A stretch of DNA of 64,000 nucleotides from Candidatus Latescibacterota bacterium (GTDB lineage Bacteria > Latescibacterota > UBA2968). The DNA lies in the NCBI GenBank assembly GCA_965208125.1, contig OZ242320.1, positions 4,064,001 through 4,128,000 on the forward strand, written 5' to 3'. Positions 7,850-61,961 of the stretch are shown here, piece by piece; position 1 is the stretch's first letter; every line of letters starts with the position of its first letter. The notes beneath the pieces are model-generated. The model was not told where the DNA came from and ran no database searches. It was given only the letters and a program-made list of their open reading frames with translations. Made by a program: the position numbers and the translations under genes.

Positions 7850-10651
7850 CTACAGTGCATGGGAGAGGCGGAGGTATAAATACCTGCCTAAGAAATCGTA
7901 GGTATTGGCATCGGACGTGCCGAGGAAACCATTGTATATCACTGCTGGTGCCTGATTGAGGACATTATTTATTCCGATTGTGAGTACGGAGTGACCAAAG
8001 GCTGTACCCAGTTGGTATGATCCATGCATACTAAAGATGCTGTTGGGACTGACTTTGCGACTCGGTGGTATTTCTGTCACATCCGGGCGGTACATGCCCT
8101 TGCAGTCGTCATCTTCGCATTCCTCAAATCCGCCGATGTATCGCCAGGTCAGCCCAATGGAAGAACGGTGATTCTCTACGCCAACTGAAGCGGCGTGACG
8201 CCAGCCTGGGAATACGCCCAGGTCGTAGTAGCCCTTGCCTTTGACTAACTCGGGACCGTTGGCGGAAGGCAGGATTTGATCATAATTCACGAGCAGATTG
8301 CTCTCTATTTGAGCTGAGACAATACCCAGAGGTGAGTCAGTAGCGTAATGGAGTCCGATATCCATGCCGCTGGTTTCGGTTTCGCCAACGTTGGTGTTGG
8401 GTGATGAGATGTAATTAATCAGCCCGGTGTTTGGGTCGCGCACGACTTGATCACAGTTGGATGGCGTGTCCTGCGAGTAGCAGTTACTCAAGATGAGGCT
8501 GGCAGGTAATGCGCCGATCTCACTCGTGATCGCGGTGGTATAGTAATCCACGGTTATATCGAATCCATCCAGAAAGCCCGGCTGATAGACCAGACCTGCT
8601 GTGAGCATTGTGGCCTTTTCCGGATCGAGATCCGTGCTGCCACTGAACTGGGCTCGCAGTTGTGCCCGTGAATCCTCAAAGTCAGATGGGATGCCTTGAT
8701 CTGCACAATTTCGCATTTGCTGAGCAGTCAACGCTCGGGCATTGCCCGCTTCATCGACCGAACTACAGGGATCGCTGACCAGCGGGAAGCCATCGCTGTT
8801 GCCGAGGAACATTTCGGCGATGCTGGGGGCGCGAAAAGCATTGGAGTATGTGGCACGAAATGCCAATCCTTGAGGCAATTCGAGACGAGTCCCCGCTTTA
8901 TATGTAGAGCCGTAGCCGAACGAATCGTAGTGGAAAATGCGTCCAGCGGCTATTAAATCGAGGCCAACTTCCCCCGCTTTGTAGAGCGGCAAATGGGCTT
9001 CTGCATACAAAGCCTTGACCGAGTACGCACCATCGGTGGGTGCTTCGTCACTGCCGGTAGTATTTCCCGATGCGGTTATGGGATCGGGAAGATAGGCTCC
9101 CGCTTCCCAGCGCGAAGATAGACCAGCGGCTATGACCAGTGGACCGGCCGAGAGTTGTGCGATCTCACCGGTCAGATTCCACTGTAGGATTTGCTGTTGA
9201 GAGTAGCCCCTGGCGATACCGGCATATTGGATGTAGTCTAACATCTCCTGGGTGATTGTGCCAGCACCGTGGAGTATATCCAGTGGTACGCAGTCGCCGG
9301 TACAATCTTCGTCTGGCCCCAGTGCCCGCACGAGATTGCTGATTATAAATCGCCCCTCGTTGACGCTGGTACCTTCGCTGCGTCCATAAGAAAAAGACAG
9401 ATCAGCGTCAAAGCCTATGAGATGATGGTCCAAACCGAGGACGATGCGATAGGTATCGATATCCTGGAGATAGTTGCGATTGCCCGCTTCGAGAAAACGC
9501 CGCCGAACATCTATAAAATCGCGGCCAAATTCGTTGTAACGGTTGGTGGCTGACACTACGATGCCGTCGCTGATGGTGAACAAGGGCGTCGGGGCCAGCT
9601 TTTGGTCGGATTGGCGATTGGTGTACGATACCTCGAAGAAAGTTTTCGCACCTTCTGTGAATTTGTAAGCACCACTAAAAAAGGAGCTGTAGCGCGTCTG
9701 TGGGGTGTAGAGGTAATTCTCCGGTTGATAATTGTACGTGTCACCGCTCCCATCCGAGGAGATTCCCGCCCAATTAAAGGGTCGCCAGCCGGTATTTGGA
9801 TCGCGGTGGTAATCACCGGCGTCCTCGCCAGCCGCCGCAACGACCGCCTGCCAGGCTTCGTTGCCCTCGGTGCCCAGGCGGTCAATAATGTGGCCTTCCG
9901 GGGTGGCCGAACTACCGTTTTTGTTATAGGTGCCGTCGTTTTTTCCCCAGTCGTAGTTTTTGTCCGATACGCTGAAACTGCGGTCGCCGGTCCAGACAGG
10001 CCTCCGGTTGTGGTAGCCTGCCGAAAACAATATGTGGCCTTTTTCGCTTTGCAAACCGGCGGTTATGCTGAGGTCGCGGACTTCGCCATCACCTGCACCT
10101 GAAATCCCCTCATAGTAATCTATCTCTACCCCTTCCATATCTGACCGGGTGATGATATTGATCACCCCTCCAATGGCGTCTGATCCATATACGGCCGAGG
10201 CTCCATCCTTGAGAATTTCGACGCGTTCGATGACTGAAGCGGGAATAGAATTGAGATCAACGGATGAATTTGCGCCTGTTCCGCCCGGCACGAAACGACG
10301 TCCATTGACCAATACCAGGGTGCGATTAGAGCCGAGTCCGCGCAGATTAATCCGGGTAGAGCCATCGCCACCGTTGTTGGACTGGGTATTGGTCGCGTTG
10401 GATTGTACTGTGAGTGTTTGTAGCACATCGCCAATGGAAGTCAATCCCCGAGCTTTGATTTCGTCACTGGATAGGACGACGACTGGCGCAGGCGAAAGAT
10501 TCTCTGCGCTTTTGATGCGGGAACCAGTTACGACAATCTCTTCAAATTCGTAGGTTTTAGGCTCGTCGGACGATTCTTTAACATCCTCTGCGAACACTGG
10601 TGTAATAAAGACGATGGCGATTATTTGCCAGAATATGTGCTTCACACTCAT
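7850..10651 (-). CDS. TonB-dependent outer membrane receptor
   Basis: Signal peptide, EEIVVTGSR, INLRGLG..RTLVLVNGRR, IERVEILKDGASAVYGSDAIGGVINII, FRAPS, C-terminal GRYLYL. Confidence 0.93.
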   Translation of the reverse strand: MSVKHIFWQIIAIVFITPVFAEDVKESSDEPKTYEFEEIVVTGSRIKSAENLSPAPVVVLSSDEIKARGLTSIGDVLQTLTVQSNATNTQSNNGGDGSTRINLRGLGSNRTLVLVNGRRFVPGGTGANSSVDLNSIPASVIERVEILKDGASAVYGSDAIGGVINIITRSDMEGVEIDYYEGISGAGDGEVRDLSITAGLQSEKGHILFSAGYHNRRPVWTGDRSFSVSDKNYDWGKNDGTYNKNGSSATPEGHIIDRLGTEGNEAWQAVVAAAGEDAGDYHRDPNTGWRPFNWAGISSDGSGDTYNYQPENYLYTPQTRYSSFFSGAYKFTEGAKTFFEVSYTNRQSDQKLAPTPLFTISDGIVVSATNRYNEFGRDFIDVRRRFLEAGNRNYLQDIDTYRIVLGLDHHLIGFDADLSFSYGRSEGTSVNEGRFIISNLVRALGPDEDCTGDCVPLDILHGAGTITQEMLDYIQYAGIARGYSQQQILQWNLTGEIAQLSAGPLVIAAGLSSRWEAGAYLPDPITASGNTTGSDEAPTDGAYSVKALYAEAHLPLYKAGEVGLDLIAAGRIFHYDSFGYGSTYKAGTRLELPQGLAFRATYSNAFRAPSIAEMFLGNSDGFPLVSDPCSSVDEAGNARALTAQQMRNCADQGIPSDFEDSRAQLRAQFSGSTDLDPEKATMLTAGLVYQPGFLDGFDITVDYYTTAITSEIGALPASLILSNCYSQDTPSNCDQVVRDPNTGLINYISSPNTNVGETETSGMDIGLHYATDSPLGIVSAQIESNLLVNYDQILPSANGPELVKGKGYYDLGVFPGWRHAASVGVENHRSSIGLTWRYIGGFEECEDDDCKGMYRPDVTEIPPSRKVSPNSIFSMHGSYQLGTAFGHSVLTIGINNVLNQAPAVIYNGFLGTSDANTYDFLGRYLYLRLSHAL

Positions 10652-10682
10652 CCATACCTCGCGATTGGAGAATGACAATTTT

Positions 10683-11639
10683 TTAGCCACTGCACGCATA
10701 CGCATCAAATACAATTTTTAAATCGCGTTTTGCGCGTGCAAAATCCGAATATGGCTGACGTGAGCGATTTTGAAGGCAGGATAAAAAATCTGCCGTCATC
10801 GCGCGATAGCCCATCAAATCTTTTAGACCGGGCCAGAGAATCCGAAAGCCTTTCTGGGGTTTGCGTATATAAATACCATTGCTTTCAAAAACAATGCGTC
10901 CGTGTGATCCTTCGATATAAGAATGTTGAAAAACGCCTTTTGTCAAACTGGGTGTTTGCCACGAGTAATGCAATTCGCCAATTGCGCCAGTGGGATAGAC
11001 CATTCTCACGACAGATTCGCGCTCTGGTGTATTGCCTGAATAGCCCGGGAATATCGCTTCGACCTGTTCGGGTACTGCATCGAATAGATCTGAAATCAGG
11101 GCGATAAAATGAATACCGCCTTCCAGCAAAGCACCATGAGCGCTTTTCCAACCCTGCGCTTGCTGCGTTGTGAGCTTTTTAACTGAGACTGAACGCATTT
11201 CGCCGATATCGCCCTGGGCGACCATGTGTTTGATGTACGATAGCGAGGGTTTGTAATAATAATTCTCCGCGATCATCAATAAGGGGGTCTCGACCCGTTC
11301 CAGCGCGGTCTCGATCTCGACAATTTCCTCTGGCGAGATGCACATCGGTTTTTCGACGAGTACGGCTTTGCCAGCTTCTAATAATGCGATTACCTGGTCT
11401 TTGTGATGCTCTGGCGGGGAAGCGATTACTACGGCATCCACATCGCTTTCCAATACGGCGTTCAGATCGTCAAAGATGCCCTCGCCCTTAAATTTGAGAT
11501 TGAACTTGTACGCGCTTACCCGCGACCGACTGCAAAAATACAACACCGCCCGCCATTGCAAGTTTTTCGCATGAAGCGCGCCGATATTCCCACAACCCAG
11601 GATGCAGATACGCGGTTTTTTATACGTTAGGTGATCCAT
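10683..11639 (-). CDS. Gfo/Idh/MocA family oxidoreductase
   Basis: GCGNIG Rossmann motif, GKAVLVEKP, GALLEGGIH. Confidence 0.88.
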   Translation of the reverse strand: MDHLTYKKPRICILGCGNIGALHAKNLQWRAVLYFCSRSRVSAYKFNLKFKGEGIFDDLNAVLESDVDAVVIASPPEHHKDQVIALLEAGKAVLVEKPMCISPEEIVEIETALERVETPLLMIAENYYYKPSLSYIKHMVAQGDIGEMRSVSVKKLTTQQAQGWKSAHGALLEGGIHFIALISDLFDAVPEQVEAIFPGYSGNTPERESVVRMVYPTGAIGELHYSWQTPSLTKGVFQHSYIEGSHGRIVFESNGIYIRKPQKGFRILWPGLKDLMGYRAMTADFLSCLQNRSRQPYSDFARAKRDLKIVFDAYACSG

Positions 11640-14903: not shown

Positions 14904-15608
14904 TCAATTGCTGGTTGTCTGTGTAACGGTAATCTGTGTAACGGTCGGCATGATGACAGTTGCCATGACGGCTGCCTGCATCGCCGCTATGGCTTCTTTC
15001 GCCGCCGGTCCCGTGGCTTCACCATTAATAATTCGTTCGATTCGTGCTTTGCGGTCTCTTAGGCCCTTTTTATCGAAGACCATTTCCAGAAGCCCTGCGC
15101 TATTCATCAGTGACACAAGAATGACTGTTCGTGGCTCGACATCTCTGGTGTCAGTAAAGATAGCCAGACGTAAACGCTCAACCAGATTCTTTCTTGGTTG
15201 TAGATTAATCTGGGAATAAAGCTTTCGCTTGAAGATGAACAAAACCTTGTCTTCAGTTGCCTGAAGGGTACCCCGACTGCACAGTTGTGCGGCAACCCGG
15301 TGTTTGAGATCCTTTATCCTGGCAAACCGCGAAACCCAATCACGAAGTGATGCACGTCTTTTTGCGCTGGTGATTTTTTCAAGGCATTCGTCAATTACAG
15401 GTTCACCGATGGGTGTAGTACTGACAGGATTGACGAGTTTTTTTTTCGTTTCTTCAACACGGATGAGATTGCTTAACAAAAGCTCAGCCAGGATGGCTGC
15501 ACCTATCGCGTACAGGTATTTGGCCTCCAATGCCAACGTGCCTTTCTCCTCTTGCAAAGCCAATAGCGTGATCTCTTCGTGTAAGAAGAGTGTGTCCTGA
15601 GTTTCCAT
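14904..15608 (-). CDS. GPP34/GOLPH3 (Vps74-like) family protein
   Basis: LFLHEEITLLAL, GAAILAELLL, KVLFIFKRKLY, PRTVILVSL. Confidence 0.8.
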   Translation of the reverse strand: METQDTLFLHEEITLLALQEEKGTLALEAKYLYAIGAAILAELLLSNLIRVEETKKKLVNPVSTTPIGEPVIDECLEKITSAKRRASLRDWVSRFARIKDLKHRVAAQLCSRGTLQATEDKVLFIFKRKLYSQINLQPRKNLVERLRLAIFTDTRDVEPRTVILVSLMNSAGLLEMVFDKKGLRDRKARIERIINGEATGPAAKEAIAAMQAAVMATVIMPTVTQITVTQTTSN

Positions 15609-15630
15609 GATGGAATCCTTTTTACAAAAG

Positions 15631-15999
15631 TCAAGATAGGGCTGTGGGGGATAGCTCCTGGATCTCATCTGGTTCGGGCATGGATGGGAATTGGACTGCT
15701 TTTATGGTTTTACGCCCTTCAAGTATCGCTTTGCACAGGCGATGGCCGCCATCCATGAGTGAGCTATCTGCATTTAGAATGATAGGATATTTCAGGGATG
15801 CAGTGTTAATTTTTTTACAATGCCGCGCGATCTCTCTTAGTGTGGGTTTCTTTTGCCCAAACCAGCAGTCTTCGTCTAATTCTTTGATTGATGATATTTC
15901 AATTTCAAATGGAGGAAGATCTCTGGACTGTCTCCAGAGTTTTTCGGTGTACCACACGAGCCGTTTACCATCGCGTATTGTGCTGTGTTTTTGCGGCAC
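15631..15999 (-). CDS. Small ParB/Srx-like N-terminal domain protein
   Basis: YPIILNADSSLMDGGHRLCKA; AGGAGG RBS before GTG. Confidence 0.7.
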   Translation of the reverse strand: MPQKHSTIRDGKRLVWYTEKLWRQSRDLPPFEIEISSIKELDEDCWFGQKKPTLREIARHCKKINTASLKYPIILNADSSLMDGGHRLCKAILEGRKTIKAVQFPSMPEPDEIQELSPTALS

Positions 16000-22435: not shown

Positions 22436-22511
22436 GGATGACTCCAATCGGGGTAAAGGAGGACGGTGTCACCTAATATTGTGGCCTGTGGGCTGGGAAC
22501 CAGCCTTGTCC

Positions 22512-22869: not shown

Positions 22870-22875
22870 GATAGC

Positions 22876-39903: not shown

Positions 39904-39958
39904 CCGTATTATTGAGGATAGAGTCTGAATCTTCCTCAATGGAAGTAGCCAGTGAATA

Positions 39959-46594: not shown

Positions 46595-46604
46595 AGATGA
46601 CCTC

Positions 46605-47733: not shown

Positions 47734-48066
47734 TCACATACTCTTACAAGAATCTCCGCTGAGTCCGAGGTGTTCGTAGAACTCTTTGCCCAGCTGGTCC
47801 AGAGGCTTTCCATACACCGGCTCAAAGACACTAAGGTCAGTTTCTTTTTTTCCTTTCGCGCCACGCCATAGATCCCCAAATCGTTTCGTCCCGTACTGGT
47901 CAATGAGAAACCTGACAAAGGTGCCAGCGACCTTGGCCTGCGAAGTGTCCGTCGTTTTGCGGGGGAGTGGGGCTTTGGGATTTCTGGCGTCTGGTGGTTG
48001 GATTTTTCCTTTAATATACTGTGATATAGAGAGATCTACAATTCTAAGAATTCGGTGATTTTTCAT
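47734..48066 (-). pseudogene. Probable C-terminal fragment of a peptidase MA-like protein
   Basis: GTFVRFLIDQYG..RF..LW, FEPVYGKPLDQL..EF; no HExxH region upstream. Confidence 0.45.
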
Positions 48067-48076
48067 GGAGAGAGCT

Positions 48077-48631
48077 ATGGCTGGATTTACTTTGGATACA
48101 CGCATACGCGCGAAACCTGATGATAGCATGGACACATTCGAAATTGCAACAAAAATAGTAGAATGGAACCCGGCGAAAGCCGCTGTTATCATCTGTGATA
48201 TGTGGGATACCCATCACTGCATTTCGACTGTCGAACGGGTCGCTGAAATGGCACCTCGTATGAATGAAGTCATAGCAGGTATCCGAAAAGAAGGTGCACT
48301 GATCATACACGCTCCCAGCAGTTGTATGGGATTCTACGACAAGACACCTCAACGCAAACGGGCCGAGGAAGCACCTTTTGTAGAGGCTTCTGTTGAATTC
48401 GGATGGAACGGGTGGGACCAACCCCGCGAGATTCGCCAACTCGTCTATCTGGGTAAGAAGCCATTGCTGTGCCGCGATCTGACGGACTCCCATCACTGTG
48501 ATCACGGAGGTCACTTCCAGGGCACGGATCTCATGCTCGAACATATCGAAAAGTACTGGTGCCCAACCGTTACAAGTGATCAACTGGTAGGAGGAGAAAC
48601 ATTCCGGTTTCGCGGTGACAAGCGTGAGTAG
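48077..48631 (+). pseudogene. Isochorismatase/cysteine-hydrolase-like gene with apparent internal in-frame deletion
   Basis: AVIICDMWD.H.C, IIHAPS, RDLTD, HIEKYWCPT present; central segment with the catalytic Cys appears absent. Confidence 0.6.
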
Positions 48632-50326: not shown

Positions 50327-50401
50327 TTGACAGGCTTTCAAAATTCAATTCTATGCGACGTTTTCATATATTAGAGGGCACGAATAAAAGGGTGGTGTAC
50401 A

Positions 50402-50440
50402 AAATTGTAAAGCCCACTACCATTTGGGGCAGTGGGCGAT
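50402..50440. repeat. Hairpin repeat copy 2
   Basis: aaattgtaaagcccactaccatttggggcagtgggcgat; direct repeat of 46331-46370. Confidence 0.8.
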
Positions 50441-51195: not shown

Positions 51196-52104
51196 CTATC
51201 CGGTTCCGACGAGCACAAGCCCTGTGAAGATGATGGCGACCCCAAGGTATTTGGGCGTGTAGCCGGGTTCTTTGAGAAGTAGGATACCGAAAATAGTGCC
51301 CAGGGGAATGCTGATCTGGCGAAAAGTAACGACATAGCTGACGTTTGAGACAAAGGCCAGGCTGATCAGGACCAGAGTATAAGCGATGGCCATGCCAGCA
51401 CCTGCCAGCAGGGCGCGAGATGCCCGCGTTTTCAGGATTTCCCACATCAGGATGCGACCGCGTTTTTGAAATAGAACCCAAATGCCCAGCCAGAGTGAGG
51501 TAATGAGGCCTTCGAAAAAGGCGTAGAGGATCGTAGCCTGCCAGCCTGCAATGGGGAGGGCGGGAGTATCTCTGAGGAAGCGCAAAGCCTCGTCGTCGAT
51601 GATCGAATAACCGGCTGAGGCGAAGGCGGCCATCAATGCAAACAATACCGATGAAGTCAGGTAGTTGTCAATATGGAAATCACTCAAATGTTTCATGGGC
51701 AGGATAAACATCCCAATGACAACCAGAGCAATGCCCCAAATGCACTGTGCGCTGACCTGGTCGGCACGGTCAAAAAAGAGCGTCACGATAATGACCACGA
51801 TGACCGGGGATGACCTTGCGATGGGGTAGAGGATGGATAGGTCTCCTCTCTGGTAGGCGTTGGCCAAGCCGAGGATGTAGATGGTCTGAAAAATACCTGT
51901 TGCGATAAGTAAGAGCCATACGGAGGTAGGGAATGTGGGAATTGCCGATCCGAATAAGATGAGGGCGGGAATCAGGCACAGAGTTCCCAGTGTGTTGACC
52001 AGGAGGAAAAAGGCAGAGGACGGATGTTCCCATTTACACAACAGGTTCCAGCCCACATGGGTGAAGGCGGAGATGAGGATGAGGATGATGGCGGTGAGGG
52101 TCAT
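51196..52104 (-). CDS. EamA/DMT family transporter
   Basis: About 10 TM segments; SA..H..WN, AY..GDLS..YPIARS, YV..FRQ.SI, LLKE. Confidence 0.88.
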   Translation of the reverse strand: MTLTAIILILISAFTHVGWNLLCKWEHPSSAFFLLVNTLGTLCLIPALILFGSAIPTFPTSVWLLLIATGIFQTIYILGLANAYQRGDLSILYPIARSSPVIVVIIVTLFFDRADQVSAQCIWGIALVVIGMFILPMKHLSDFHIDNYLTSSVLFALMAAFASAGYSIIDDEALRFLRDTPALPIAGWQATILYAFFEGLITSLWLGIWVLFQKRGRILMWEILKTRASRALLAGAGMAIAYTLVLISLAFVSNVSYVVTFRQISIPLGTIFGILLLKEPGYTPKYLGVAIIFTGLVLVGTG

Positions 52105-52132
52105 GGCGGTATTGTAGAAATATCCGAGGTAT

Positions 52133-53398
52133 TCAGGCCTCCGCCAACTCGAATTTACTCTCAAACGCAGTCAGGGATTCTTGCATTTCACTTGCCAATG
52201 CCCTTGAGTCGGACGCTTCTGATAGGTTTCTAGTCTCCCAGGGATCCGCTTCCATGTCGAAGAGCTGGATTACTGGATCGCCCTCATAGGTGATGAGCTT
52301 GTGTGTGTTGGTGCGGAGCATTTTACCGCCTCCGGTGGCGTGTGCTACCACAAAATCCCGCCAATCTGGATTTTCTCCCTCAGCAATCGCACGCAGGCTG
52401 TATCCCCGCATCATGGGAGGCGGCGAGATCCCGGCATAATCACAAACTGTCGGAAAAACATCTACGCCCGATACGAGATGCTCCTGGTCAATTACCTGTT
52501 CTTCGATGTGACCGGGCCAACTCATGATAAAAGGTACCCGCGCGGCTTCATCGTATAGAAAGCTCTTAAAGACCATCTTGTGTCGAAGATGCCCGTCCCC
52601 ATGGTCGGATGTAAGGATCACGACCGTATTGTCCTTAAATGCTGAATTTTCGAGCGCGTCCAGGATCAGACCGATCTGCCCATCCACCTTTTCAATATAG
52701 CGGTAGTAGGTCCAGATATAGTGACGATAGAGTTTCTCTTCCCACTTTTCCATACCCGATTCTTCGCCTCGATCTGCCAGTTTTTGATTCCGAGAGCTTA
52801 TGATTTTTTCCGGTTCCGCCATGTTTGTCTCAAAATTGGGGGGTAGAGGAGGAAGGTCGTCAATCTCGGGGAACGGCATCTTCCCATCGTGCATCGTATG
52901 TGTCAGTACGAAAGAGCAGATATCGTGCGGATTCAAGAGTCCGACTGACAGGAAGAAGGGTTCTTTTTCCTGGTAGTTCTGGAGAAATCCGATCGCACTG
53001 CGGGTCGAAGCAATGTCTCCGGTCTCGGCCGTATTCCGCGGATCGGGGCAGATATGGTGGAAACTCTGCGCGACATCTCTGCCGGGAATATGCCATTTTC
53101 CGCTGTAGTAGGCGTTGTAACCATTTTTGTTCAGCCATTGTCCCAGATCCGGCATGGTCGGAACCATGTTGGCACCATTGGCCACGACACCGTTTTCGGG
53201 GGTGTGGCGTCCGGTAAACCAGCTCGCACGTGCCGGACAGCAGACTGGATTGGCGCTATAGGATTTTGTAAAACTGATTCCCCTTGCTGCAAGCCGGTCC
53301 ATACCGGGTGTCTTCACGTCATTGCACCCCAGATGCCCAAGGGCTTCCGCGCTATGCTGGTCGGTCGTAATCAGAAGTATATTCGGTCTCTGTTTCAT
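52133..53398 (-). CDS. Sulfatase
   Basis: PNILLITTDQ, CCPAR (CxPxR), GKWH, SDHGD, LFD...DPWE. Confidence 0.92.
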   Translation of the reverse strand: MKQRPNILLITTDQHSAEALGHLGCNDVKTPGMDRLAARGISFTKSYSANPVCCPARASWFTGRHTPENGVVANGANMVPTMPDLGQWLNKNGYNAYYSGKWHIPGRDVAQSFHHICPDPRNTAETGDIASTRSAIGFLQNYQEKEPFFLSVGLLNPHDICSFVLTHTMHDGKMPFPEIDDLPPLPPNFETNMAEPEKIISSRNQKLADRGEESGMEKWEEKLYRHYIWTYYRYIEKVDGQIGLILDALENSAFKDNTVVILTSDHGDGHLRHKMVFKSFLYDEAARVPFIMSWPGHIEEQVIDQEHLVSGVDVFPTVCDYAGISPPPMMRGYSLRAIAEGENPDWRDFVVAHATGGGKMLRTNTHKLITYEGDPVIQLFDMEADPWETRNLSEASDSRALASEMQESLTAFESKFELAEA

Positions 53399-53401
53399 TG
53401 C

Positions 53402-54121
53402 TTATGACCCCTCCCTCTTGAGGATCACTGTCCGACGCGTACTCACCACGAGAAATAATCGCCCATTCGCATCTACATAATAACAGGTGGGAATAACGGA
53501 TTCTCCGTAATGGCAATATACATCTGCAGTCACAGCACTTTGATCTGTTGTGATCTCCGATGTCCCGCGATAAATTAGAAACTGATTTTCCCGGATCATC
53601 GAGAATTCTTCTATCAGGTCAAATGCGTGCTTTGTAGTGTCCTTTCTGGCACTTAGTCGCTGGACTGCGTCAAAAAGACACCAGTCGGCGGTATAAGGAC
53701 CAAGCGTTTTTGAGCGCGCAGGTTCTTTGTTATCCATAAAAAGTCGGCTATTTCGGATTTCTCCTTTCTGGGTGTATTCAACCAGTCCTTTTCCCGCCGT
53801 GCTCCCGTTGGAATACTTCAGCGTCCAGGCCTTTGGAGATGTGAGTGCGTTGTTCTCGCAGTGTGCATTAATTTTTGTTGTGTTATCGAACTTCAGGTCC
53901 GAGCAGGCGATTCCCAAATGACGGTCTTCACCTTCATTCTTTGCAGAAATCCTGAGTGTAGCCTCAGGTTCGTGAGGCCTGCTCCCTCGCTTCGTCCGAA
54001 TGTTCATCCAGTAGATGTCGTATGTCTGCTCTCCCGGTGCCTCCGGATCAAAGGTTCCGGCGGGCAAACCGTATTTGTTCAATACCCTCTTTGTGTGGAT
54101 ATATTCCCATGGCTCGGCCAT
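53402..54121 (-). CDS. Hypothetical protein
   Basis: 239 aa ORF with AAGGAG RBS, stop 3 bp before the sulfatase start; no recognised motif. Confidence 0.6.
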   Translation of the reverse strand: MAEPWEYIHTKRVLNKYGLPAGTFDPEAPGEQTYDIYWMNIRTKRGSRPHEPEATLRISAKNEGEDRHLGIACSDLKFDNTTKINAHCENNALTSPKAWTLKYSNGSTAGKGLVEYTQKGEIRNSRLFMDNKEPARSKTLGPYTADWCLFDAVQRLSARKDTTKHAFDLIEEFSMIRENQFLIYRGTSEITTDQSAVTADVYCHYGESVIPTCYYVDANGRLFLVVSTRRTVILKREGS

Positions 54122-54333
54122 TTCCCCGCTCCTTTGTATGGAAGTCTCTCAATGAAGGACATTCAGATTCTACGACATACTGAAGGGAAGAGCAAGTATC
54201 ATCTGGTAGGGATTTTGAAGGGGTGTTGAAAAATGCTCTATGACCTACTTCGCCGAGCTTGACCTGCAAAGGCGAAGTCGCTATTGTATCGGGCGCGAAT
54301 TGTACTGCAGGAGCAACTGATGGAGGACCAACG

Positions 54334-55653
54334 ATGTCGAATGAAAAGCCGAATGTGCTGGTGATTCAGCCCGACCAGCATCGCGGAACTGTGATGGGTT
54401 GTGCAGGTGACTCGCAGGTGAAAACGCCGAATCTGGACCACCTTGCGTCGGAGGGGATCCGGTTCTCGCACTGCGCCTCGTCCAGCCCTGTGTGTTCCCC
54501 ATTTCGGGGGACGATGCAGACTGGATTGTATTGCCATACCCACGGCGTGGATGTGAACAATATTCTGCTGAATCCCGAGTTGATCACATTTGCCGATCTG
54601 TTTGCGGACGCCGGATACGCCACAGGCTATATCGGGAAGTGGCATCTGGATGGGGGTAAGCCCAGGGGATGGGGTGGATTTATTGAGCCTGGTCCCAGGC
54701 GAGCGGGATGGCGGGAATGGCACGGGTACCAGAAGGGGCACGAGTTTTTTGAAGTCTGGGACTACAACGAGAATCGCGAGAGGGTGCGGATCGAAGGTTA
54801 CGACTGGGAGCCAGCGTGGCATACGGATATGGCTCTGGACTTTGCAAAACGAAATCGCGACGCCGATAGTCCCTGGCTCTACTATTTGGGATATGGCCCG
54901 CCGCACCAGCCCGAACAGTGCCCGCAGAAGTACCTGGATATGTACGATCCCGATACTTTTGAGTTGCCAGACGACGTGAAGGGACGGTTCGGAGATCGGG
55001 AACGCGAGCTTCGGCGGCTTTATCAGATGTATTACGGTCAGGTAACAGCAGTGGATGTGGAGATTGGACGTGTGATGGCTGGCCTGGAGGAACTGGGAAT
55101 CTCAGACAATACGATTGTGGTCTATATAAGCGATCACGGCGATAAGCTGGGCAGTCACTGCGAACCCGATGAGCGCAACTTTCGCGGCAAGGGAAGTCCC
55201 TTTGCGACCGCATTTCGCATTCCGTTCATCGTGCGATGGCCCAATCGCATTGAGCCAAATCAGGTGTGTGACGCGCTGGTGAGTAGCGTGGATCTCACGC
55301 CCACGATTCTGGACCTGGCGGGATTGGGGATTCCCGATGTGATGCAGGGCGACAGTATGGCGAGTTGGTGTCTGGAGGGAAAAGGCGTGGCGAACGACTG
55401 TGTATATATGGGACTCCGCGGCGCGACTCAGCCCGATGGATGGCGTGCCGTATGGGATGGCCGTTACGTGTTTTCACCAGGCATTCACAATGTCCTGTAT
55501 GACCACGAATCCGATCCGCTGGAGATGGAAAATCTCATCGACGCGCCGCAGATTTCAGGTGAGAAGAAACGGTTAGCGGAGTTACTCGTACAGATGGCAG
55601 AAAAGACAGAAGATCCGATGCTGCAAGAGGTGAAGGGACTTTGCGGTGTGTGA
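54334..55653 (+). CDS. Sulfatase
   Basis: GGAGG RBS; PNVLVIQPDQ, CSPFR, GKWH, SDHGD, LYD...DPLE. Confidence 0.92.
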   Translation: MSNEKPNVLVIQPDQHRGTVMGCAGDSQVKTPNLDHLASEGIRFSHCASSSPVCSPFRGTMQTGLYCHTHGVDVNNILLNPELITFADLFADAGYATGYIGKWHLDGGKPRGWGGFIEPGPRRAGWREWHGYQKGHEFFEVWDYNENRERVRIEGYDWEPAWHTDMALDFAKRNRDADSPWLYYLGYGPPHQPEQCPQKYLDMYDPDTFELPDDVKGRFGDRERELRRLYQMYYGQVTAVDVEIGRVMAGLEELGISDNTIVVYISDHGDKLGSHCEPDERNFRGKGSPFATAFRIPFIVRWPNRIEPNQVCDALVSSVDLTPTILDLAGLGIPDVMQGDSMASWCLEGKGVANDCVYMGLRGATQPDGWRAVWDGRYVFSPGIHNVLYDHESDPLEMENLIDAPQISGEKKRLAELLVQMAEKTEDPMLQEVKGLCGV

Positions 55654-56952
55654 TCATCCCTGACCGTCATCGCGGCCATACGCATGCTCCCACGCTTTCA
55701 CCCGTCCAAACAACACGCCCACGCGTTCTTGATATCTTTCATCCTCAATCCGATTATAAAACTCCTTCGGATCCTCCGCCAAATCAAAATACTCTCCTGC
55801 TTCACCCTGATATACATTTAACTTTTCCGTTTCTGTCCGAATCATCTGGGTATCACCAATCTGACTGAATACCGCATCCCGCCAATCATCAGGGAGTGGC
55901 TCTCCATCCAGCAACGGTGTCAAAGACCGGCCGTGTATAGAGTCGGGAACCTCAGCCCCAATCAGATCACAAATCGTCGGAAACAAATCAATATGTTCTA
56001 CTAGTTCATCCCGCACCCCTGATCGAATTCTGGGATCAGAAATCAACAATGGCACATGCACTGAAGCCTCTCGCATATTAAACTTCAAAAACATCTCATG
56101 CTCCCACATCTGATCGCCGTGATCTGCCGTCCAGATTACAATCGTCTCGTCCCTGATTCCCAACCTCTCCAACGCATCTAAAACCATCCCACAATACCCA
56201 TCCACAAGTTCAATCATCCCGTAATATCCCGCAATTACCTGTCGCAGTTCCACGGGTGTCAGATGCGCCCACTCTTTCCGTTTCCTCAAAATATCACTGT
56301 GGGGCAACGGCGCATCAGCAGGTGCTTGCTCTGGTAATTCGATCTTTGACTGATCAATCTTTTCATAAATTTCTTTGGGCGGATAAAACGGGGGATGAGG
56401 CTCCGTAAAACTCGTCCAGGACAGAAATTTATCTCCTTTACTGACGGCTTCTTCAATCTGTCGAATCGACTCTGTCGCCACATGATATCCCCAATACTGC
56501 TCCCGACTTCGCGGACTTGGCCCGCCAGATGACCGCCGCAATACCCCCTCATTTTCCCAATCGTATCGGGCGAGCATATTCTCAGGCATTGTCTCGCGCC
56601 ACATCTGTTGTGTAATTTCTGGCTCATAGCCATTGTCCATATCGGGGTCTTTCCAGTGCATATGTCCCAGATGAAAACGACGATAATTCAAGGGTTGCAC
56701 CGCGTGTGCGATCGTGTACATTCCCGGATAAGGCATTGAATTATTGGTAAAGACGCCATGTGTATGGACATATTTGCCGGTTGCCAAACTGTGCCGCGCT
56801 GGCGAACACACTGGCGACTGTGTATAACACTGGTCAAATCGCACACTCTTTTCAGCCAGGCGATCCAGGTTAGGCGTATGAGCCAGTGGATTCCCCAGGC
56901 ACCCCAACGCATCAAATCTGTGATGATCGCTCATCAAAACAAGTACATTCAT
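55654..56952 (-). CDS. Sulfatase (choline-sulfatase-like)
   Basis: MSDHHRFD, TPNLDRLA, CSPAR, PHPP, ADHGD. Confidence 0.92.
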   Translation of the reverse strand: MNVLVLMSDHHRFDALGCLGNPLAHTPNLDRLAEKSVRFDQCYTQSPVCSPARHSLATGKYVHTHGVFTNNSMPYPGMYTIAHAVQPLNYRRFHLGHMHWKDPDMDNGYEPEITQQMWRETMPENMLARYDWENEGVLRRSSGGPSPRSREQYWGYHVATESIRQIEEAVSKGDKFLSWTSFTEPHPPFYPPKEIYEKIDQSKIELPEQAPADAPLPHSDILRKRKEWAHLTPVELRQVIAGYYGMIELVDGYCGMVLDALERLGIRDETIVIWTADHGDQMWEHEMFLKFNMREASVHVPLLISDPRIRSGVRDELVEHIDLFPTICDLIGAEVPDSIHGRSLTPLLDGEPLPDDWRDAVFSQIGDTQMIRTETEKLNVYQGEAGEYFDLAEDPKEFYNRIEDERYQERVGVLFGRVKAWEHAYGRDDGQG

Positions 56953-56970
56953 TAATCAATCTCCTTTCAA

Positions 56971-58218
56971 TCAACTCCTCGTTCGATTTCTCCATTGGTT
57001 AAGCGCGTTGAGCAAGCTGTCTCTGGTTTCGCGGTTCAGACTCTGAGCCAGATTGTTGCGTTCATACGGGTCGTCCGCCAGATCAAAGCAATGCGTAATG
57101 TCATTCTCGTTCCGCTTTGTAACCAGCTTTACGTCGCCCCTGATAATGCAATCATCTTTGTGTTCGATGAAGACATCTGTTGAGGTATCTGGCTCTCCTG
57201 TCAGGCAGGGCAGCAGAGAGCGTCCTTCAGTTTCTCCCGGATTTTCAGCATTGGCCAGATGGAGGATAGTGGCGAATAGATCTACGGTAGATACTGGTTT
57301 CTCAACAACACATTGAGTTGTTCCGGGTACGCGGATGAGCAGAGGCACGCGAACAGACTCATCGAACATAACGCCTTTTCCGAACAAGCCATGACAACCG
57401 GCCATATCGCCATGGTCAGATGTGAAGATGACTACAGTATCATCTGCCAGTCCAGTCGTTTCCAGTGTTTTCAATACGCGGCCAAACGCGGTGTCCAACT
57501 GAGAGATTTCCCCAAAGTACCGCTTTCTGAATTCTTCAACACCGTAGTCCGCATTCCAGCCCCTGTTCTTGAACCAGGCGTCGTGGTCTGTGTTGGGTGG
57601 GTTATCCAGTACGGACTTATCATATCGCTGCCTGTCGGTCATCGGGGGCGAACACGGAGGATGGGGCGCTTGATACGATACGGCCATGAAGAATGGGGAT
57701 TTCGGGGATGATAGCGATTCCAGTTCTTCGCAGACAATATCTGTCAAGCCATCGGTTTCGTGTCCGCGAAGCCTTATGGGGTTGTCGGGATCATCGTACC
57801 AGATCAGTCCGGCATTGTGATCTACATGGTGGCTTTCCCACCCAATGAAGTGTTGAAAGCCTCCGCACAGTTCTGGCGGGACCCACCCGTTCCGTTGTTT
57901 ACCGCTCAAATGCCATTTTCCGATATAGTGCGTGTCATAACCCGCCTGATTCAGGTGATGGGCAATGGTCGGCTGATTCACGGGGAGGCGCATACCATTT
58001 CCTGTAACGCCGGTTTGGCTCGGGTATTGACCGGTTAATAGACAAGCTCTGTATGGGGTGCAGAGCGGTACATTCGTATAAGCGCGATTGAATTGTACGT
58101 TTTGTGTGGCGAATTGTGATAGGTTGGGGGCGTGAATTAGATGGTTTCCATAGAACGGCAACCATCTGGCGCTAAGCTGGTCGGGAAATATGAATAGGAT
58201 GTTTGGTCTGTGTATCAT
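56971..58218 (-). CDS. Sulfatase
   Basis: PNILFIFPDQ, CTPYR, GKWH, SDHGD, FDL..DPYE. Confidence 0.92.
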   Translation of the reverse strand: MIHRPNILFIFPDQLSARWLPFYGNHLIHAPNLSQFATQNVQFNRAYTNVPLCTPYRACLLTGQYPSQTGVTGNGMRLPVNQPTIAHHLNQAGYDTHYIGKWHLSGKQRNGWVPPELCGGFQHFIGWESHHVDHNAGLIWYDDPDNPIRLRGHETDGLTDIVCEELESLSSPKSPFFMAVSYQAPHPPCSPPMTDRQRYDKSVLDNPPNTDHDAWFKNRGWNADYGVEEFRKRYFGEISQLDTAFGRVLKTLETTGLADDTVVIFTSDHGDMAGCHGLFGKGVMFDESVRVPLLIRVPGTTQCVVEKPVSTVDLFATILHLANAENPGETEGRSLLPCLTGEPDTSTDVFIEHKDDCIIRGDVKLVTKRNENDITHCFDLADDPYERNNLAQSLNRETRDSLLNALNQWRNRTRS

Positions 58219-58254
58219 GTATTCGGGGTGGGGGAGAGGTCGATTGATTCTTTT

Positions 58255-60711
58255 TCAGTTGCTTTTGAAAGGGTCGCTCAAAACAACGAGGGTGATAAGA
58301 TCGCGCAGACCCTTATTTTTTTCCTGTACATCCTGGACTATTGTATCAATCCCCGGTCGATCAGTAATTCCCAACTCGCGACCAATCGCGTAGGTCAGCA
58401 ATTTTTCTGTCAGACAACGCGTGAATTCTGCGTGGCGCTTTGCCACTATCTTGCGAAATTCGACGAAGGATTGGAATGTCTCGCCACTCGGCAATTGTCC
58501 CGAAGGATCAATCGCTGCGCTTCTGGTATAGTGGGTTCGCCAACCGCCGATTGCGTCAAAGTTTTCCAGCGCAAAACCAGGGGGATCGATTTTGCTATGA
58601 CATTGGGCGCAGGTCGGCATCTCGCGGTGCTTGACCAGTTGATCTCTGATGGTCGTTGCTCCGCGCGTGTCTGGCTCAATTTCGGGCACATCGTCTGGCG
58701 GTGGCGGCGGTGTGTATCCCAGCAGATTTTCCAGCACATAAATCCCGCGCACCACGGGCGAAGTATCCACGCCATTGGCCGAAGCCATAAGAAAACTGCC
58801 CTGGCCCAGCAGACCACCGCGTGGTGTCCCGGTGAGCGGAACCCGACGAAAATGATCGCCCTCAATATCTTCTATCCCATAATGCCGGGCGAGTTCCCGA
58901 TTGAGAAAGGAATAATCAGCAGAAAGAAATTCGCGGGGCGAAAGATTGTTGTCGAGTATGTGCCGAAAAAATGTCTCTGTTTCAGTCACCATAGCAGGGC
59001 CGAGGTTGTCGCGAAAATAGACTCTAAAATCTGGGGACGGTGGCATCTCTCCAATGTTGTCATAGTGGAGCCATACGCGAATGAAATTTTTAACAAAGCG
59101 GTGCGATTTTGTGTCTTTGAGCATGCGATGGATCTGATTACTGAGCGTGGCCGGGTCGCTTAGTTTTTTTTGTTGAGCAAGTGCTATCAGTTCATCATCC
59201 GGTGCAGAAGACCACAGAAAATAGGATAGCCGGGCAGCCAGAGAATAATCATCCAGAGCGCCTTCGTCTTCATGCAAAAACAGAAAAGCTGGCGCACTGA
59301 GAATGGCCTGAAAACCCAGTTGTAACGCGGTCAACGGCTCCATGCCATTGCTGAGTTTTTCATGCGCAAGCGACTCAAATGGTGCCAGTTCGCCCGGGCG
59401 CAAGGGCCTGCGAAAAGCGGCTGTGGCAAATGCACGCAAACGATCCGATATACGCTTCTGATCCAAATCCTCGGGTTTTAGATCGCCATACATCAACTGA
59501 TGTCCGCGTGGAGGCCAGTGTTTTTTTTGAGGACCAATAACCTGAATTTCCCAAACCCTTAGCTTAGGCCCGCGGTAAATTTTGAGTAACGCATGATTTC
59601 TTTTATTTCCCGCTTTCTGATCCACGAAGGGCAGGATTTCGGGTTTTGGATCTTTTGCCTTAGTAAGTTTGCGAACCAGGGCTTTGGTTGCCAGCGTTCC
59701 ATTGCGAAAACGAACCTCAGGCTCAAATCCTTTTTCCAGATAAACATCCCATTCAAACCACTGAGGCTCTTCACGGGTCAGTTCAACAGTTGCAAGCGTG
59801 TATTCGCGAGTAATATTGCCCGTGCTCACTACACTGCCTTTTCGATCTACAGCTGCCAGTTCCAGCACAAGCGGGTCGCCTGTGGGAAAATCGTTGAGTT
59901 CTCTGTCATAATGGTGATTGCGATCAATTGCTGCCGCCTGTACCCTTATGGTGTAGATACCACTGACAGGGGCGCCACCATTTGCCAGCGGATAAAAGCC
60001 AATATGACCACCGCGGTAGTGACGTCCAGTGAGATCATCGTATCCCGTATCTGACACAAATCGAAAGCGATCCTCTCTAAAAACCTTGGGCAAGGAACTG
60101 GCCTGTTTGCCTTTAAAATAGAAGGGTGATTTCTGCACGTAATTTTTGGCTTCGGGGCTGGCTTCAAAACGCGTGGCACGGGTGACGGCTTCTTCGGCAA
60201 CACGCAAATAGTGGTTGAGCAACATGCCCGATGTGACAAGCCCAGCAGCATTGTTATCAAAGCCCTTGACCTTCACTTCGGGCGGAAAATCTTCCGTTGG
60301 ATCCCAGGCTTCCATATTCAGACCGAGTAAATCGCCGAGTGTCTGGCGATATTCCCAGGCGTTGAGCCGTCTCAGAGGTGTATGCTGTCCTTTGCCCGAC
60401 AATCGCATACGCGCTTCAGCAATTGATGCTGTAATCATCTGAACAGTGGCGAGCACCTCATCTTTACCCGGCTGCCTCTGGCGCTTTGGTGGCATCGACT
60501 GCAGGTTGAGCTGATCGACAATATCCTGCCAGAGTTCTAATTCTTTGAAGTTGGCAATTGTCTCAGAGAACTGATCAAAGCGCCGATCGGCTTTTTGTAC
60601 GCTTGAACCGTGACACTTGACACAATATTGTGTGAGAAATGCCCTGGGCAGTTCTCCCCAAACAGAATGCGCGCATAGCGTGAAGGCAATGACCATCAAA
60701 ATCCGTTTCAT
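58255..60711 (-). CDS. DUF1592/DUF1588/DUF1585 protein with N-terminal CxxCH (planctomycete cytochrome-c-like)
   Basis: CVKCHG, RRLN..EY..T..DL, LA.RLSYFLWSS.PD, SPV.RG, CAQCH..IDPPGFALE.FD.IG. Confidence 0.9.
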   Translation of the reverse strand: MKRILMVIAFTLCAHSVWGELPRAFLTQYCVKCHGSSVQKADRRFDQFSETIANFKELELWQDIVDQLNLQSMPPKRQRQPGKDEVLATVQMITASIAEARMRLSGKGQHTPLRRLNAWEYRQTLGDLLGLNMEAWDPTEDFPPEVKVKGFDNNAAGLVTSGMLLNHYLRVAEEAVTRATRFEASPEAKNYVQKSPFYFKGKQASSLPKVFREDRFRFVSDTGYDDLTGRHYRGGHIGFYPLANGGAPVSGIYTIRVQAAAIDRNHHYDRELNDFPTGDPLVLELAAVDRKGSVVSTGNITREYTLATVELTREEPQWFEWDVYLEKGFEPEVRFRNGTLATKALVRKLTKAKDPKPEILPFVDQKAGNKRNHALLKIYRGPKLRVWEIQVIGPQKKHWPPRGHQLMYGDLKPEDLDQKRISDRLRAFATAAFRRPLRPGELAPFESLAHEKLSNGMEPLTALQLGFQAILSAPAFLFLHEDEGALDDYSLAARLSYFLWSSAPDDELIALAQQKKLSDPATLSNQIHRMLKDTKSHRFVKNFIRVWLHYDNIGEMPPSPDFRVYFRDNLGPAMVTETETFFRHILDNNLSPREFLSADYSFLNRELARHYGIEDIEGDHFRRVPLTGTPRGGLLGQGSFLMASANGVDTSPVVRGIYVLENLLGYTPPPPPDDVPEIEPDTRGATTIRDQLVKHREMPTCAQCHSKIDPPGFALENFDAIGGWRTHYTRSAAIDPSGQLPSGETFQSFVEFRKIVAKRHAEFTRCLTEKLLTYAIGRELGITDRPGIDTIVQDVQEKNKGLRDLITLVVLSDPFKSN

Positions 60712-61961
60712 GAAATCTCCATCGCAGAAAAGGTCCCTGTGCTTTTACCAAAGCTATCTCGCTCTACACCAAACCACTGCAAGACGGAAAGCCAGAGATT
60801 TGACAGTGGGATCCGCTTGTGTGCCTCAGCAGGACACACGAGATGTCCTTGATGTTTCAAACCGCCTCCAGCGAGAATCACCGGCAAATTCCTATTGGAA
60901 TGCCTTGAGCCATCGCCCATGCCACTTCCCAGAACGACCAGTGTGTCGTCAAACACATTTGCTTCTTTGAGGCGATCCAGAAACCGACTAAACTGAGTCA
61001 ACAAATATTTTTCCACTACCTGAAGGTCTTTCAATATCCCCTCCTCCTTGCCGTGGTGCGAAAGGCCGTGATATCCGCCAAGGTTGAGTTCGGATGTCTT
61101 AAAGCCCATGGGGATTTCAAAGGTCACAACCCGTGTCGAGTCTGTCTGTAATGCCAGTGTTAGCAGGTCATAAAAAAGCGGCATTTCCTCAATTTGCATC
61201 CGTTCGAGGTCTTCCACAGGTTCAATTGGGGATTCTGGCTTGGGTTTGTCGAGCCATTCGCGCGACATTTGCAAACGACGCTCGACGTCGCGCACCGAAG
61301 TCAGATATTGATCGAGCTTACCGCGATCCGCCGCATTTAACTGACCATCGAGTGTCTTTGCCGACGCGAGCAAGGCGTCGAGCACACTGCCCCGATTTGA
61401 TAGCGTACGACGCTCTGCGCTTCGCACAGCTTCATCATTCTGTACAAACAGAGCCTGAAAAATGCGGGCGGGATTGTTAATCGGTGCCACATTTACGCCC
61501 GACCGCGTCCATACCATGTCTGTGCCTCTGCCCAGCCCTGCAGTAATTGAGGGAAAGCGCGTCGTACTGCCCACATGCTCAGCTGCTATCTGGTCCAGCG
61601 TCATATTCTTTTCGGGGAAACCTGCGGCTTCTTCCTTGCGTATGCTGCTCAGAAATACATGTACGCCGGAGTGTCCACCGCCCGTACCGTGATCGAGATT
61701 TGAAAAGATAGTAAAATCATTTCGGTGTGAATCGATATACTTCAGCGTCAGGCTCGTCTCATAGTCCTTGCCGGACTGTTCGGGGAAAAATCCGCCCGGC
61801 CAAAATCCCAGATGATTGCCCACGCAGACCAGACGCCTCGGATTTGTCGCACCGTACACCATTCTGCTTTCCAAGAAAGGCAAAGATAGTGCTATGCCTG
61901 TGCCCTGTAAAAAGTGCCGACGATTAACCCTCGCTTGCAAAAGTTCAGAGATGACTTTCAT
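60708..61961 (-). CDS. DUF1552 domain protein
   Basis: NRRHFL.G.G..L.LPFLE, TLDQ, LD.YL.SVR.VE, ALQTD.TRV, H.LSHH, PVILAGG. Confidence 0.92.
   Translation of the reverse strand: MKVISELLQARVNRRHFLQGTGIALSLPFLESRMVYGATNPRRLVCVGNHLGFWPGGFFPEQSGKDYETSLTLKYIDSHRNDFTIFSNLDHGTGGGHSGVHVFLSSIRKEEAAGFPEKNMTLDQIAAEHVGSTTRFPSITAGLGRGTDMVWTRSGVNVAPINNPARIFQALFVQNDEAVRSAERRTLSNRGSVLDALLASAKTLDGQLNAADRGKLDQYLTSVRDVERRLQMSREWLDKPKPESPIEPVEDLERMQIEEMPLFYDLLTLALQTDSTRVVTFEIPMGFKTSELNLGGYHGLSHHGKEEGILKDLQVVEKYLLTQFSRFLDRLKEANVFDDTLVVLGSGMGDGSRHSNRNLPVILAGGGLKHQGHLVCPAEAHKRIPLSNLWLSVLQWFGVERDSFGKSTGTFSAMEIS

Follow-up and report, generated by a model that had tools for sequence, protein, structure and literature searches.

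The window analysed here comprises bases 4,064,001-4,128,000 (64,000 nt) of the single-contig, 5.75-Mb genome (51% GC) of a Candidatus Latescibacterota bacterium (GenBank assembly GCA_965208125.1, contig OZ242320.1), and positions refer to this window unless genome coordinates are stated. It carries an array of mostly single-gene units on the minus strand, which stands directly behind a helicase and an oxidoreductase gene and in front of a conserved cluster (Table 1). The length, modularity and co-orientation of this array are unusual and real. A first-pass annotation, made from the sequence alone, had described positions 7850-61961 as one array of about 59 minus-strand genes and 2 plus-strand genes. 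A strict call, based on open reading frames (ORFs) and codon scores, gives 51 minus- and 2 plus-strand genes for that interval, and a permissive ORF call gives 57 and 2 for positions 5207-61961, so that the near-total minus orientation stands with either call. The run extends over 44 genes up to a plus-strand gene remnant and ranks first in a genome-wide comparison of 993 co-oriented runs (4315 called genes), the runners-up comprising 37, 31, 31 and 30 genes. The proposed extent held in part only, as the variable array ends before the conserved cluster, which is not cassette-like cargo.

The cargo was identified by Pfam scans of 67 ORFs. The four PhyH, two VOC, NUDIX, cupin, AAA_33 and GrpB genes named by the first-pass annotation were all recovered, GrpB as a fusion with an ANT(2'')-like N-terminus. 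The six GNATs listed alongside AAC(3) became five GNATs and one AAC(3)-type Antibiotic_NAT, and the five S-adenosylmethionine methyltransferases became four, one of them truncated. Of the four toxin-antitoxin (TA) loci that had been proposed, MazEF, a PIN gene and an HTH_3 antitoxin accompanied by a toxin remnant were found; in the fourth pair (28916-29424), the scanned ORF has no Pfam match. The further enzymes of the array are listed in Table 1. Defence-type domains met in the scans are SIR2 and the TA modules in this genome, and Mrr and HSDR_N in relatives.

Table 1 Features of the window (window positions; G numbers designate genomes of relatives; aa, amino acids)
Feature	Position	Strand	Remarks and basis
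DEAD/DEAH helicase with MrfA-type Zn-binding domain	5207-7675	-	Left anchor; Pfam
TonB-dependent receptor	7850-10714	-	In 11 of 13 array-bearing genomes; Pfam
GFO/IDH/MocA oxidoreductase	10683-11639	-	Ancestral neighbour of the helicase; array starts directly after it; Pfam
Variable array proper	11646-51161	-	About 46 co-oriented, mostly single-gene units; VOC (2), PhyH (4), GNAT (5), methyltransferase (4), AAC(3)-like, ANT/GrpB, beta-lactamase-fold (2), NUDIX, PNPOx, AAA_33, PhoD, metallophosphoesterase, SIR2, FAD oxidoreductase, His phosphatase, cupin, ECF-sigma fusion, TA modules; Pfam and pan-array matrix
GPP34-family gene	14904-15668	-	Only in this genome and G006; Pfam, relatives
HigBA-like TA module	22448-23050	-	Own promoter TTGACA-17-TATGAT at 22904-22876
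Molybdopterin-oxidoreductase gene	24395-25489		Within the array
Putative TA pair	28916-29424	-	Two small ORFs with 4-nt overlap; scanned ORF without Pfam match
455-aa gene	31630-32997	-	In 13 of 13 array genomes; no Pfam match
MazEF TA module	34873-35466	-	In 3 of 13 genomes; in another slot in G019
AAC(3)-type acetyltransferase and FAD oxidoreductase	36059-38186	-	Pfam
SIR2-domain gene	38836-39939	-	Only in this genome and G006; environmental contigs omit it at gene-unit boundaries
Truncated methyltransferase/EamA-like fragment and cupin gene	45346-46247	-	Insert unique to this genome
Hairpin and T-rich repeat, about 41 nt, copy 1	46328-46368	-	Array gap upstream of the cupin unit
71-aa remnant	46409-46624	-	Grouped with the His-phosphatase family; G015 has a second full paralog at the corresponding place
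PIN-domain (VapC-like) gene	46605-47060	-	Full-length in 2 of 13 genomes
188-aa ORF	48065-48631	+	Shortened copy of a 272-277-aa plus-strand gene of 9 of 13 genomes
564-aa fusion with ECF-type sigma factor	48647-50341	-	In 4 of 13 genomes
Hairpin and T-rich repeat, copy 2	50399-50439	-	Upstream of the sigma-fusion gene
Conserved cluster	51196-61961	-	EamA transporter, four sulfatases, PSD/PSCyt and DUF1552 pair
Gene in conserved cluster	53402-54121	-	No Pfam match
Sulfatase in conserved cluster	54259-55653	+	Pfam
PSD protein	58255-60711		Right syntenic anchor

The helicase and the PSD protein are syntenic anchors in at least 13 species of the genus, with a spacing of 33.8-56.4 kb, and the stretch between them was compared for 12 species and this genome (13 complete or near-complete genomes). 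With few exceptions, the array genes have counterparts in the 12 congeners, with 85-98% protein identity and in the same order and on the same strand. Mis-assembly can be ruled out, since these 12 independently assembled genomes are collinear. The first-pass annotation had held that gene order conserved in relatives would speak against gene accretion; the order of the backbone is indeed kept in the 12 species, but single genes vary. Clustering of the called proteins of all arrays gave 135 families, of which 13 occur in all 13 genomes and 44 are singletons, i.e. turnover at a fixed place between conserved genes, as in hotspots free of mobile genetic elements (MGEs). In the conserved cluster, each of the seven countable families is present in at least 11 of the 13 genomes (the DUF1552 gene, at the margin of the fetched sequence, is outside these counts). 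The relatives are less strictly co-oriented, with between 39 of 54 and 59 of 62 genes on the array strand, and carry at least eight insertion sequence (IS) insertions in the array. Forty rare families of at least 100 aa occur in their arrays and are absent from this genome. Of the 30 that were scanned against Pfam (the remaining 10 being at most 153 aa long), 11 are transposase ORFs from several IS families, and the others represent cargo similar to that described above (GNAT, nucleotidyltransferase, HIT, CN hydrolase, Mrr and a Gp49-type toxin). Related sequence was found in marine, sponge and coral metagenome runs, none of which contains this strain itself, the best share of its words being 0.24.

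Between conserved genes, the slots of the compared genomes alternate between empty and filled states, and the switches fall at gene boundaries. Base-level comparison places the inserts between the stop codon of the upstream gene and the ribosome-binding site (RBS) of the downstream gene, each insert bringing its own RBS. Contigs of wild relatives lack the NUDIX, MazEF, FAD-oxidoreductase, SIR2 and GNAT units. Losses have left traces: for a 622-nt insert, scars of 18-19 nt consist of its two ends, a 706-nt insert is represented by a 31-nt scar, and the GPP34 insert by a remnant of about 100 nt in G014 and G019. The other genomes have a junction of 27-39 nt at the GPP34 site. One internal deletion runs between two copies of TTGGCTCT, an 8-nt direct repeat, and the loss of a TA module from this genome has joined the upstream ORF to the start codon that follows. 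Alternative slots are occupied by families 54, 66, 46 and 45, MazEF and the HigBA-like module; a sulfatase and a beta-lactamase-fold gene are among the genes relocated in this way. The HigBA-like module, whose toxin gene carries an internal deletion here, is found (90% aa identity) in G008, G013, G014 and G009 between the VOC gene at 33877-34263 and the PhyH gene at 33029-33880, and one sulfatase of the conserved cluster is found in two slots among the genomes. Gain, loss and relocation of single units of RBS and ORF, and the compaction of junctions by deletion, both of which the first-pass annotation had proposed, are therefore borne out in the relatives, with the 8-nt repeat as the one clear case of deletion between direct repeat copies. 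The Shine-Dalgarno (SD) sequence was also considered as a general recombination site and rejected, since three filled/empty comparisons break differently relative to it (one inside the SD, one before it, and one at a junction without an SD).

Tracts of at least 98.5% nucleotide identity, against a background of 90-93%, link this genome with four relatives. With G015, G003 and G008 they comprise AAC(3) with the FAD oxidoreductase, and Ldh_2/PhyH; with G009, MazEF. The tract over AAC(3) and the FAD oxidoreductase can be read as a recent exchange, judging from its identity. On a local tree based on 13,173 columns of 11 universal array genes, the 59 variable families require a mean of 2.83 changes, compared with 3.02 for shuffled patterns, and only five of them fit the tree with a single change (this count includes families 1, 57, 60 and 61, whose patterns are influenced by where the fetched stretches end). 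Families found in exactly two genomes have non-sister carriers in 17 of 18 cases, or in 15 of 16 when two end-cut families are left out. Gene content is nearly uncoupled from the local phylogeny. A near-random distribution of this type is expected from homologous recombination in the conserved genes which flank the slots, or from repeated loss.

The orientation of the cargo changes with its persistence. Among the non-IS families of at least 100 aa inside the array, the ratio of minus to plus strand is 30:1 for those present in 10-13 genomes, 21:3 for those in 4-9 and 24:8 for those in 1-3, while it is 4:10 for the IS-related families (families 92, 93 and 104 being assigned to the latter because they adjoin and resemble scanned transposase ORFs). 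The rare plus-strand cargo includes TA modules and a regulator-plus-peptidase unit, which can express themselves. The rise of co-orientation with persistence is read as a selective filter acting on promoter-less cargo. Promoter-like sites occur near the numbers expected from shuffled sequence (16 vs 17.5, 36 vs 24.8 and 20 vs 18.4), as do terminator-like sites (22 vs 20.3, 25 vs 19.2 and 14 vs 15.6), and transcription units can therefore not be drawn from these scans; the only promoters that stand out are that of the HigBA-like module and one at 62052-62023. Leading-strand bias was rejected as the cause of the run: cumulative GC skew places the origin at about 1.95 Mb and the terminus at about 4.95 Mb of the genome, which puts the array on the lagging strand, and the leading strand carries only 51% of the 4315 genes. 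Between 4.1 and 4.4 Mb, where 65 genes lie on the plus and 174 on the minus strand, the skew is close to zero, which may hint at an old large rearrangement around this region, perhaps blurring the leading/lagging call. Genome-wide, GC skew is strong (0.1-0.2), yet gene strand is not tied to it.

We consider it probable that the locus represents a flexible genomic island, i.e. a hotspot of gene flux which is specific to this clade, has no integrase and was shaped by generic recombination, deletion and selection, and that it is not an integron. In the ancestor shared by at least 13 Latescibacterota species, mutually unrelated accessory genes would have come to stand in a row immediately behind the helicase-oxidoreductase pair, most of them for small-molecule-modifying or 'housecleaning' enzymes, together with TA modules. 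Homologous recombination between related, probably co-resident species would since have exchanged single genes, the interleaved conserved genes acting as homology arms by which single genes could be swapped in and out. Occasional illegitimate insertion or relocation would account for the movement of genes, TA modules and IS elements, and a deletion bias would pare the units down to RBS and ORF and leave scars. Selection is predicted to keep promoter-less cargo along local read-through transcription, as a result of which old cargo would become almost perfectly co-oriented. We infer the orientation filter, the co-transcription, the direction of assembly and the respective weights of homologous and illegitimate recombination. 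The array may function as a reservoir of weakly expressed, exchangeable modifying enzymes.

Several points weigh against the hotspot reading. Mean sharing of the genes of this genome, out of 11 genomes, is 7.5 in the array, 7.3 in the left and 5.5 in the right flank, according to a crude comparison with fixed 40-kb flanks of 10 relatives, which is confounded by rearrangements and window ends; as the flanks are as variable as the array, the term hotspot would describe the whole neighbourhood. Homologous recombination, possibly in excess at the conserved genes, is deduced from identity tracts and near-random homoplasy. Rare non-IS cargo is still biased towards the array strand (binomial p=0.007 for the 24:8 ratio), which leaves room for oriented insertion. 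The SD motif GGAGA precedes 12 of 31 array genes, compared with 240 of 2090 operon-internal genes elsewhere (p=1e-4), a three- to fourfold enrichment. In the relocated sulfatase, beta-lactamase-fold gene and 455-aa gene, the homologous stretch begins 12-20 nt ahead of the start codon and extends to the stop codon or just past it, and such strikingly regular boundaries could reflect a precise mechanism. In four metatranscriptome libraries of relatives, contigs cover the array and span gene junctions, which is no proof of a single transcript, carry-over of DNA being possible; stretches that these contigs leave uncovered carry no weight either way. Finally, the 455-aa gene is unmatched in five genomes of other genera, and the neighbouring PhyH gene has only one 34% paralog there, so that the outgroups cannot polarise gathering versus dispersal of the array genes.

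The helicase is kept in 26 of 40 relatives (41 genomes searched including its own, 27 with a match). Beside it, four distant congeners, in which it is 84-87% identical at the protein level, and two other genera retain only the GFO/IDH/MocA oxidoreductase; the array is absent, and in outgroups the TonB-dependent receptor is missing from between the two genes. In G016, G029 and G021 the next 7-8 genes behind the oxidoreductase form a block that is conserved in all three and that in the present genome sits at genome position 578,734-588,335, 3.5 Mb away, and the array thus begins exactly at an old synteny breakpoint. Orthologs of array genes occur in the four distant congeners with 77-84% nucleotide identity, single and far apart. 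They include Ldh_2, two PhyH genes, the 455-aa gene, an HTH gene and a small ORF, and in G016 they lie at 0.10, 2.42, 2.62, 4.98 and 5.07 Mb. The orthologs of the 455-aa gene (80-84% identity in the four outgroup congeners) are single genes found in at least two settings other than the array; the two genes which enclose the ortholog in G001 lie next to each other in the present genome, and the copies in different contexts are homologous from RBS to stop codon. Around the relocated 455-aa gene, G016, G018 and G001 are mosaics of short blocks and single genes (loci L059-L064), whose orthologs are scattered over this genome; single-gene scrambling seems common throughout the genus, beyond the arrays.

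The absence of the array beside the outgroup helicase could also mean that the ancestor of the clade took up one large island en bloc, which has since undergone only differential deletion with little gain. The many deletion scars and gene remnants agree with such a history, as does the mean codon-usage score of the array, which is among the lowest 1.6% of sliding 46-gene runs. We nevertheless regard it as unlikely. The 77-84% nucleotide identity of the dispersed orthologs matches the genus-level divergence of the helicase, which argues for a native origin of the genes, and little gain is at odds with 44 singleton families that include IS elements, with units relocated within the array, with the tracts of at least 98.5% identity between species, and with the non-sister carriers of the two-genome families.

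The same architecture extends to the right of the window and is found at two other places in the genome. In relatives, the right flank is variable, reordered, mostly co-oriented and itself an array; in this genome it continues as array C (about 4138000-4158000 of the genome, minus strand), recognised by GNAT matches and right-flank gene order. Array A (genome 546183-577253, loci L137 and L138, minus strand) consists of about 34 mostly small genes, with HIT, two PNP_UDP, APH, AadA-like nucleotidyltransferase, RidA, DoxX, methyltransferase and five GNAT matches, and with paralogs of both AAC(3) and the FAD oxidoreductase. This array adjoins the ancestral neighbours of the helicase-oxidoreductase pair, and the two arrays therefore flank one ancestral junction. 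Its head gene on the plus strand (genome 577377-578741) was considered as an integrase and proved to be a glutamine-synthetase-type ligase. Array D (4328928-4365173, loci L068 and L069, minus strand) contains APH, NUDIX, GNATs, a methyltransferase and a truncated M24 peptidase according to Pfam, and a Xer-like recombinase lies 3 kb upstream in the same orientation. Arrays A and D, both scanned with Pfam, thus carry the same types of cargo on the same strand as the main array, and 23 of the 44 GNAT matches of the genome lie inside the four arrays, all on the minus strand.

This recurrence of at least four arrays with one type of cargo on a single strand would be accounted for by a dedicated and so far undescribed cassette system, in which units of RBS and ORF are moved between species and slots and stacked co-directionally, an analogue of the integron independent of attC and integrase. 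The three relocations with RBS-to-stop boundaries, the presence of the same genes in different slots, the strand bias of rare cargo, the GGAGA enrichment and the almost tree-independent presence/absence patterns would all follow from it. The first-pass annotation had likewise offered a mechanism which inserts ORFs into one transcribed lane, a proposal which is not upheld: IS elements and TA units enter both ways round, rare non-IS cargo is less co-oriented (24:8) than old cargo (30:1), the junctions share only ordinary SD sequences, and the breakpoints share no site but vary from slot to slot. No candidate enzyme was found, the neighbours of the arrays differ (the helicase, the glutamine-synthetase-like gene and the Xer-like recombinase), and selection with deletion trimming predicts equal boundaries after about 6% divergence. 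Since generic processes suffice, a dedicated system of this type is doubtful.

The junctions of the array have a median length of 28.5 nt, 68% of them being at most 60 nt, compared with a median of 24 nt and 64% for same-strand neighbours genome-wide. The tight junctions of 0-60 bp that had been claimed are thus real but not distinctive, and the same applies to the change of composition from gene to gene, as the standard deviation of GC at third codon positions (GC3) lies at the 80th percentile of sliding 46-gene runs. Together with 4-nt overlaps like those elsewhere in the genome, such junctions would be expected if the array consisted of ordinary functional operons, or of one pathway cluster, co-oriented by chance, and the 51-62 kb part is indeed a cluster of this sort. 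For the array as a whole this explanation is very improbable, since single genes are gained and lost without their neighbours, the cargo families are mutually unrelated, and neighbourhoods are not kept outside the clade. The latter agrees with the original description of neighbouring genes as functionally unrelated, and is seen both in the four distant congeners and with the 497-aa gene, whose homologs (66-76% identical) occur in other Latescibacterota, Chloroflexota, Clostridia, Planctomycetaceae and further taxa: at 12 of 12 loci of other taxa, the neighbours are unrelated to those in the array.

Parts of integrons or of other integrative elements were sought with profile, core-pair and repeat scans. 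The genome yielded no integron integrase, the best match to TIGR02249 scoring 103.9+97.5 bits against a cut-off of 265; this candidate is 240 kb away, and model positions 174-235, which are specific to IntI, are unmatched, with only about 21 residues in their place. Phage_integrase matches above the cut-off number five in the whole genome and none in the window, and no transposase is present at the locus in this genome. Core pairs of attC type (RYYYAAC...GTTRRRY, i.e. R''...R', at a spacing of 43-137 nt) occur four times in the array, all within genes, compared with 3.98 +/- 2.8 for 100 equally long stretches drawn at random from the genome. The arrays of the 12 relatives and the three other arrays of this genome contain 72 in 723 kb, or about 5.6 per 54 kb, which is near chance. 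There is no family of repeats at the junctions, and the core-pair scans yield no cluster of at least two attC sites of the kind that defines a CALIN (cluster of attC sites lacking integron integrases). The absence of an integrase, a transposase and a repeated RYYYAAC...GTTRRRY site, as noted in the first-pass annotation, is thereby confirmed. With regard to classical genomic islands, integrative and conjugative elements or prophages, the window contains no integrase, no tRNA or transfer-messenger RNA gene and no Rfam match even at E<=5, no direct repeats flank the locus, and plasmid and phage collections gave no near match to it. No publication was found which brings together integrons, attC and Latescibacteria, supplements being outside the scope of this search. 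A decayed sedentary integron or CALIN that has lost its integrase and attC sites, the other origin suggested by the first-pass annotation, shares with the array the co-orientation (57:2), the unit-wise presence/absence among 13 genomes, the type of cargo and the interspersed TA modules, but this is a resemblance only, and we find such an origin scarcely credible given the lack of any vestige in 12 of 12 relatives, the missing IntI, the chance-level, intragenic core pairs, and junctions of which 68% are too short for an attC site.

Some smaller features of the window deserve mention. The hairpin and T-rich repeat has exactly two copies in the genome, both in array gaps, and recurs in seven relatives, at the 46328 locus in G006, G009, G017 and G019 and upstream of the sigma-fusion gene in G004, G014 and G013; it could be a terminator or a regulatory site. 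The minus-strand ORFs which overlap the 188-aa ORF are probably spurious. In the 5' part of the molybdopterin-oxidoreductase gene, a 9-nt unit is repeated in 11 tandem copies (25176-25325) and encodes a low-complexity linker. A stretch of 29 nt, covering the RBS and first codons, is 90% identical between the genes at 29983-30831 and 25518-26432, of which one is a metallophosphoesterase and the other, without a Pfam match, may be a diverged paralog. The genome is very rich in sulfatases, each sulfatase query giving about 150-170 tblastn matches.

The locus bears on how bacteria add single genes at places without mobile elements. Half of the known gene-transfer hotspots lack recognisable machinery. 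For this question the locus offers an unusually clean natural series, with 13 genomes, about 45 slots in filled, empty and scarred states, and base-level breakpoints, and with single copies of its genes at other sites of the outgroup genomes. It allows the contributions of homologous recombination, illegitimate insertion, deletion bias and selection on orientation to be weighed, and would also show whether a more specific process takes part. The cargo also represents a catalogue of exchangeable small-molecule-modifying enzymes in marine-host-associated bacteria, including genes of aminoglycoside-modifying type and with the beta-lactamase fold, GNATs and VOC proteins. Should a dedicated cassette system exist after all, it would be a second, mechanistically different solution to the gene-stockpiling task of the integron, in sponge-associated Latescibacterota.

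Among known systems, sedentary chromosomal integrons and CALINs have a single orientation, small, unrelated and mostly promoter-less cargo, and TA modules with their own promoters. The array resembles them in orientation, cargo, TA modules and the cassette-like presence/absence and reordering of its units. It differs in that no IntI, attI or attC was found here, in its short junctions, in its largely conserved backbone, and in the entry of IS and TA units in both orientations. The additive flexible genomic islands of marine bacteria change by stepwise addition and loss of small modules at a fixed place, and are usually tied to tRNA genes, integrases or integrons. The module-wise differences at a fixed site are shared by our locus, which in contrast has no tRNA gene, integrase or integron. 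Closest are the MGE-free hotspots of horizontal gene transfer (HGT). According to Oliveira et al. 2017 (PMC5635113), half of the hotspots of HGT are free of MGEs and 27% have neither integrases nor transposases, the core genes which flank hotspots recombine more often, and repair genes occur beside hotspots. The locus shares with MGE-free hotspots the concentration of accessory genes between conserved genes, the rapid turnover, the signs of recombination, the lack of an integrase or transposase (in this genome) and the flanking helicase of DNA-repair type. Unlike a single slot between two core genes, it consists of about 45 stacked single-gene slots among clade-conserved genes, is almost wholly co-oriented, has several counterparts within one genome, and was compared between species rather than strains. 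The array thus fits an extended, multi-slot, co-oriented form of the known class of MGE-free hotspots.

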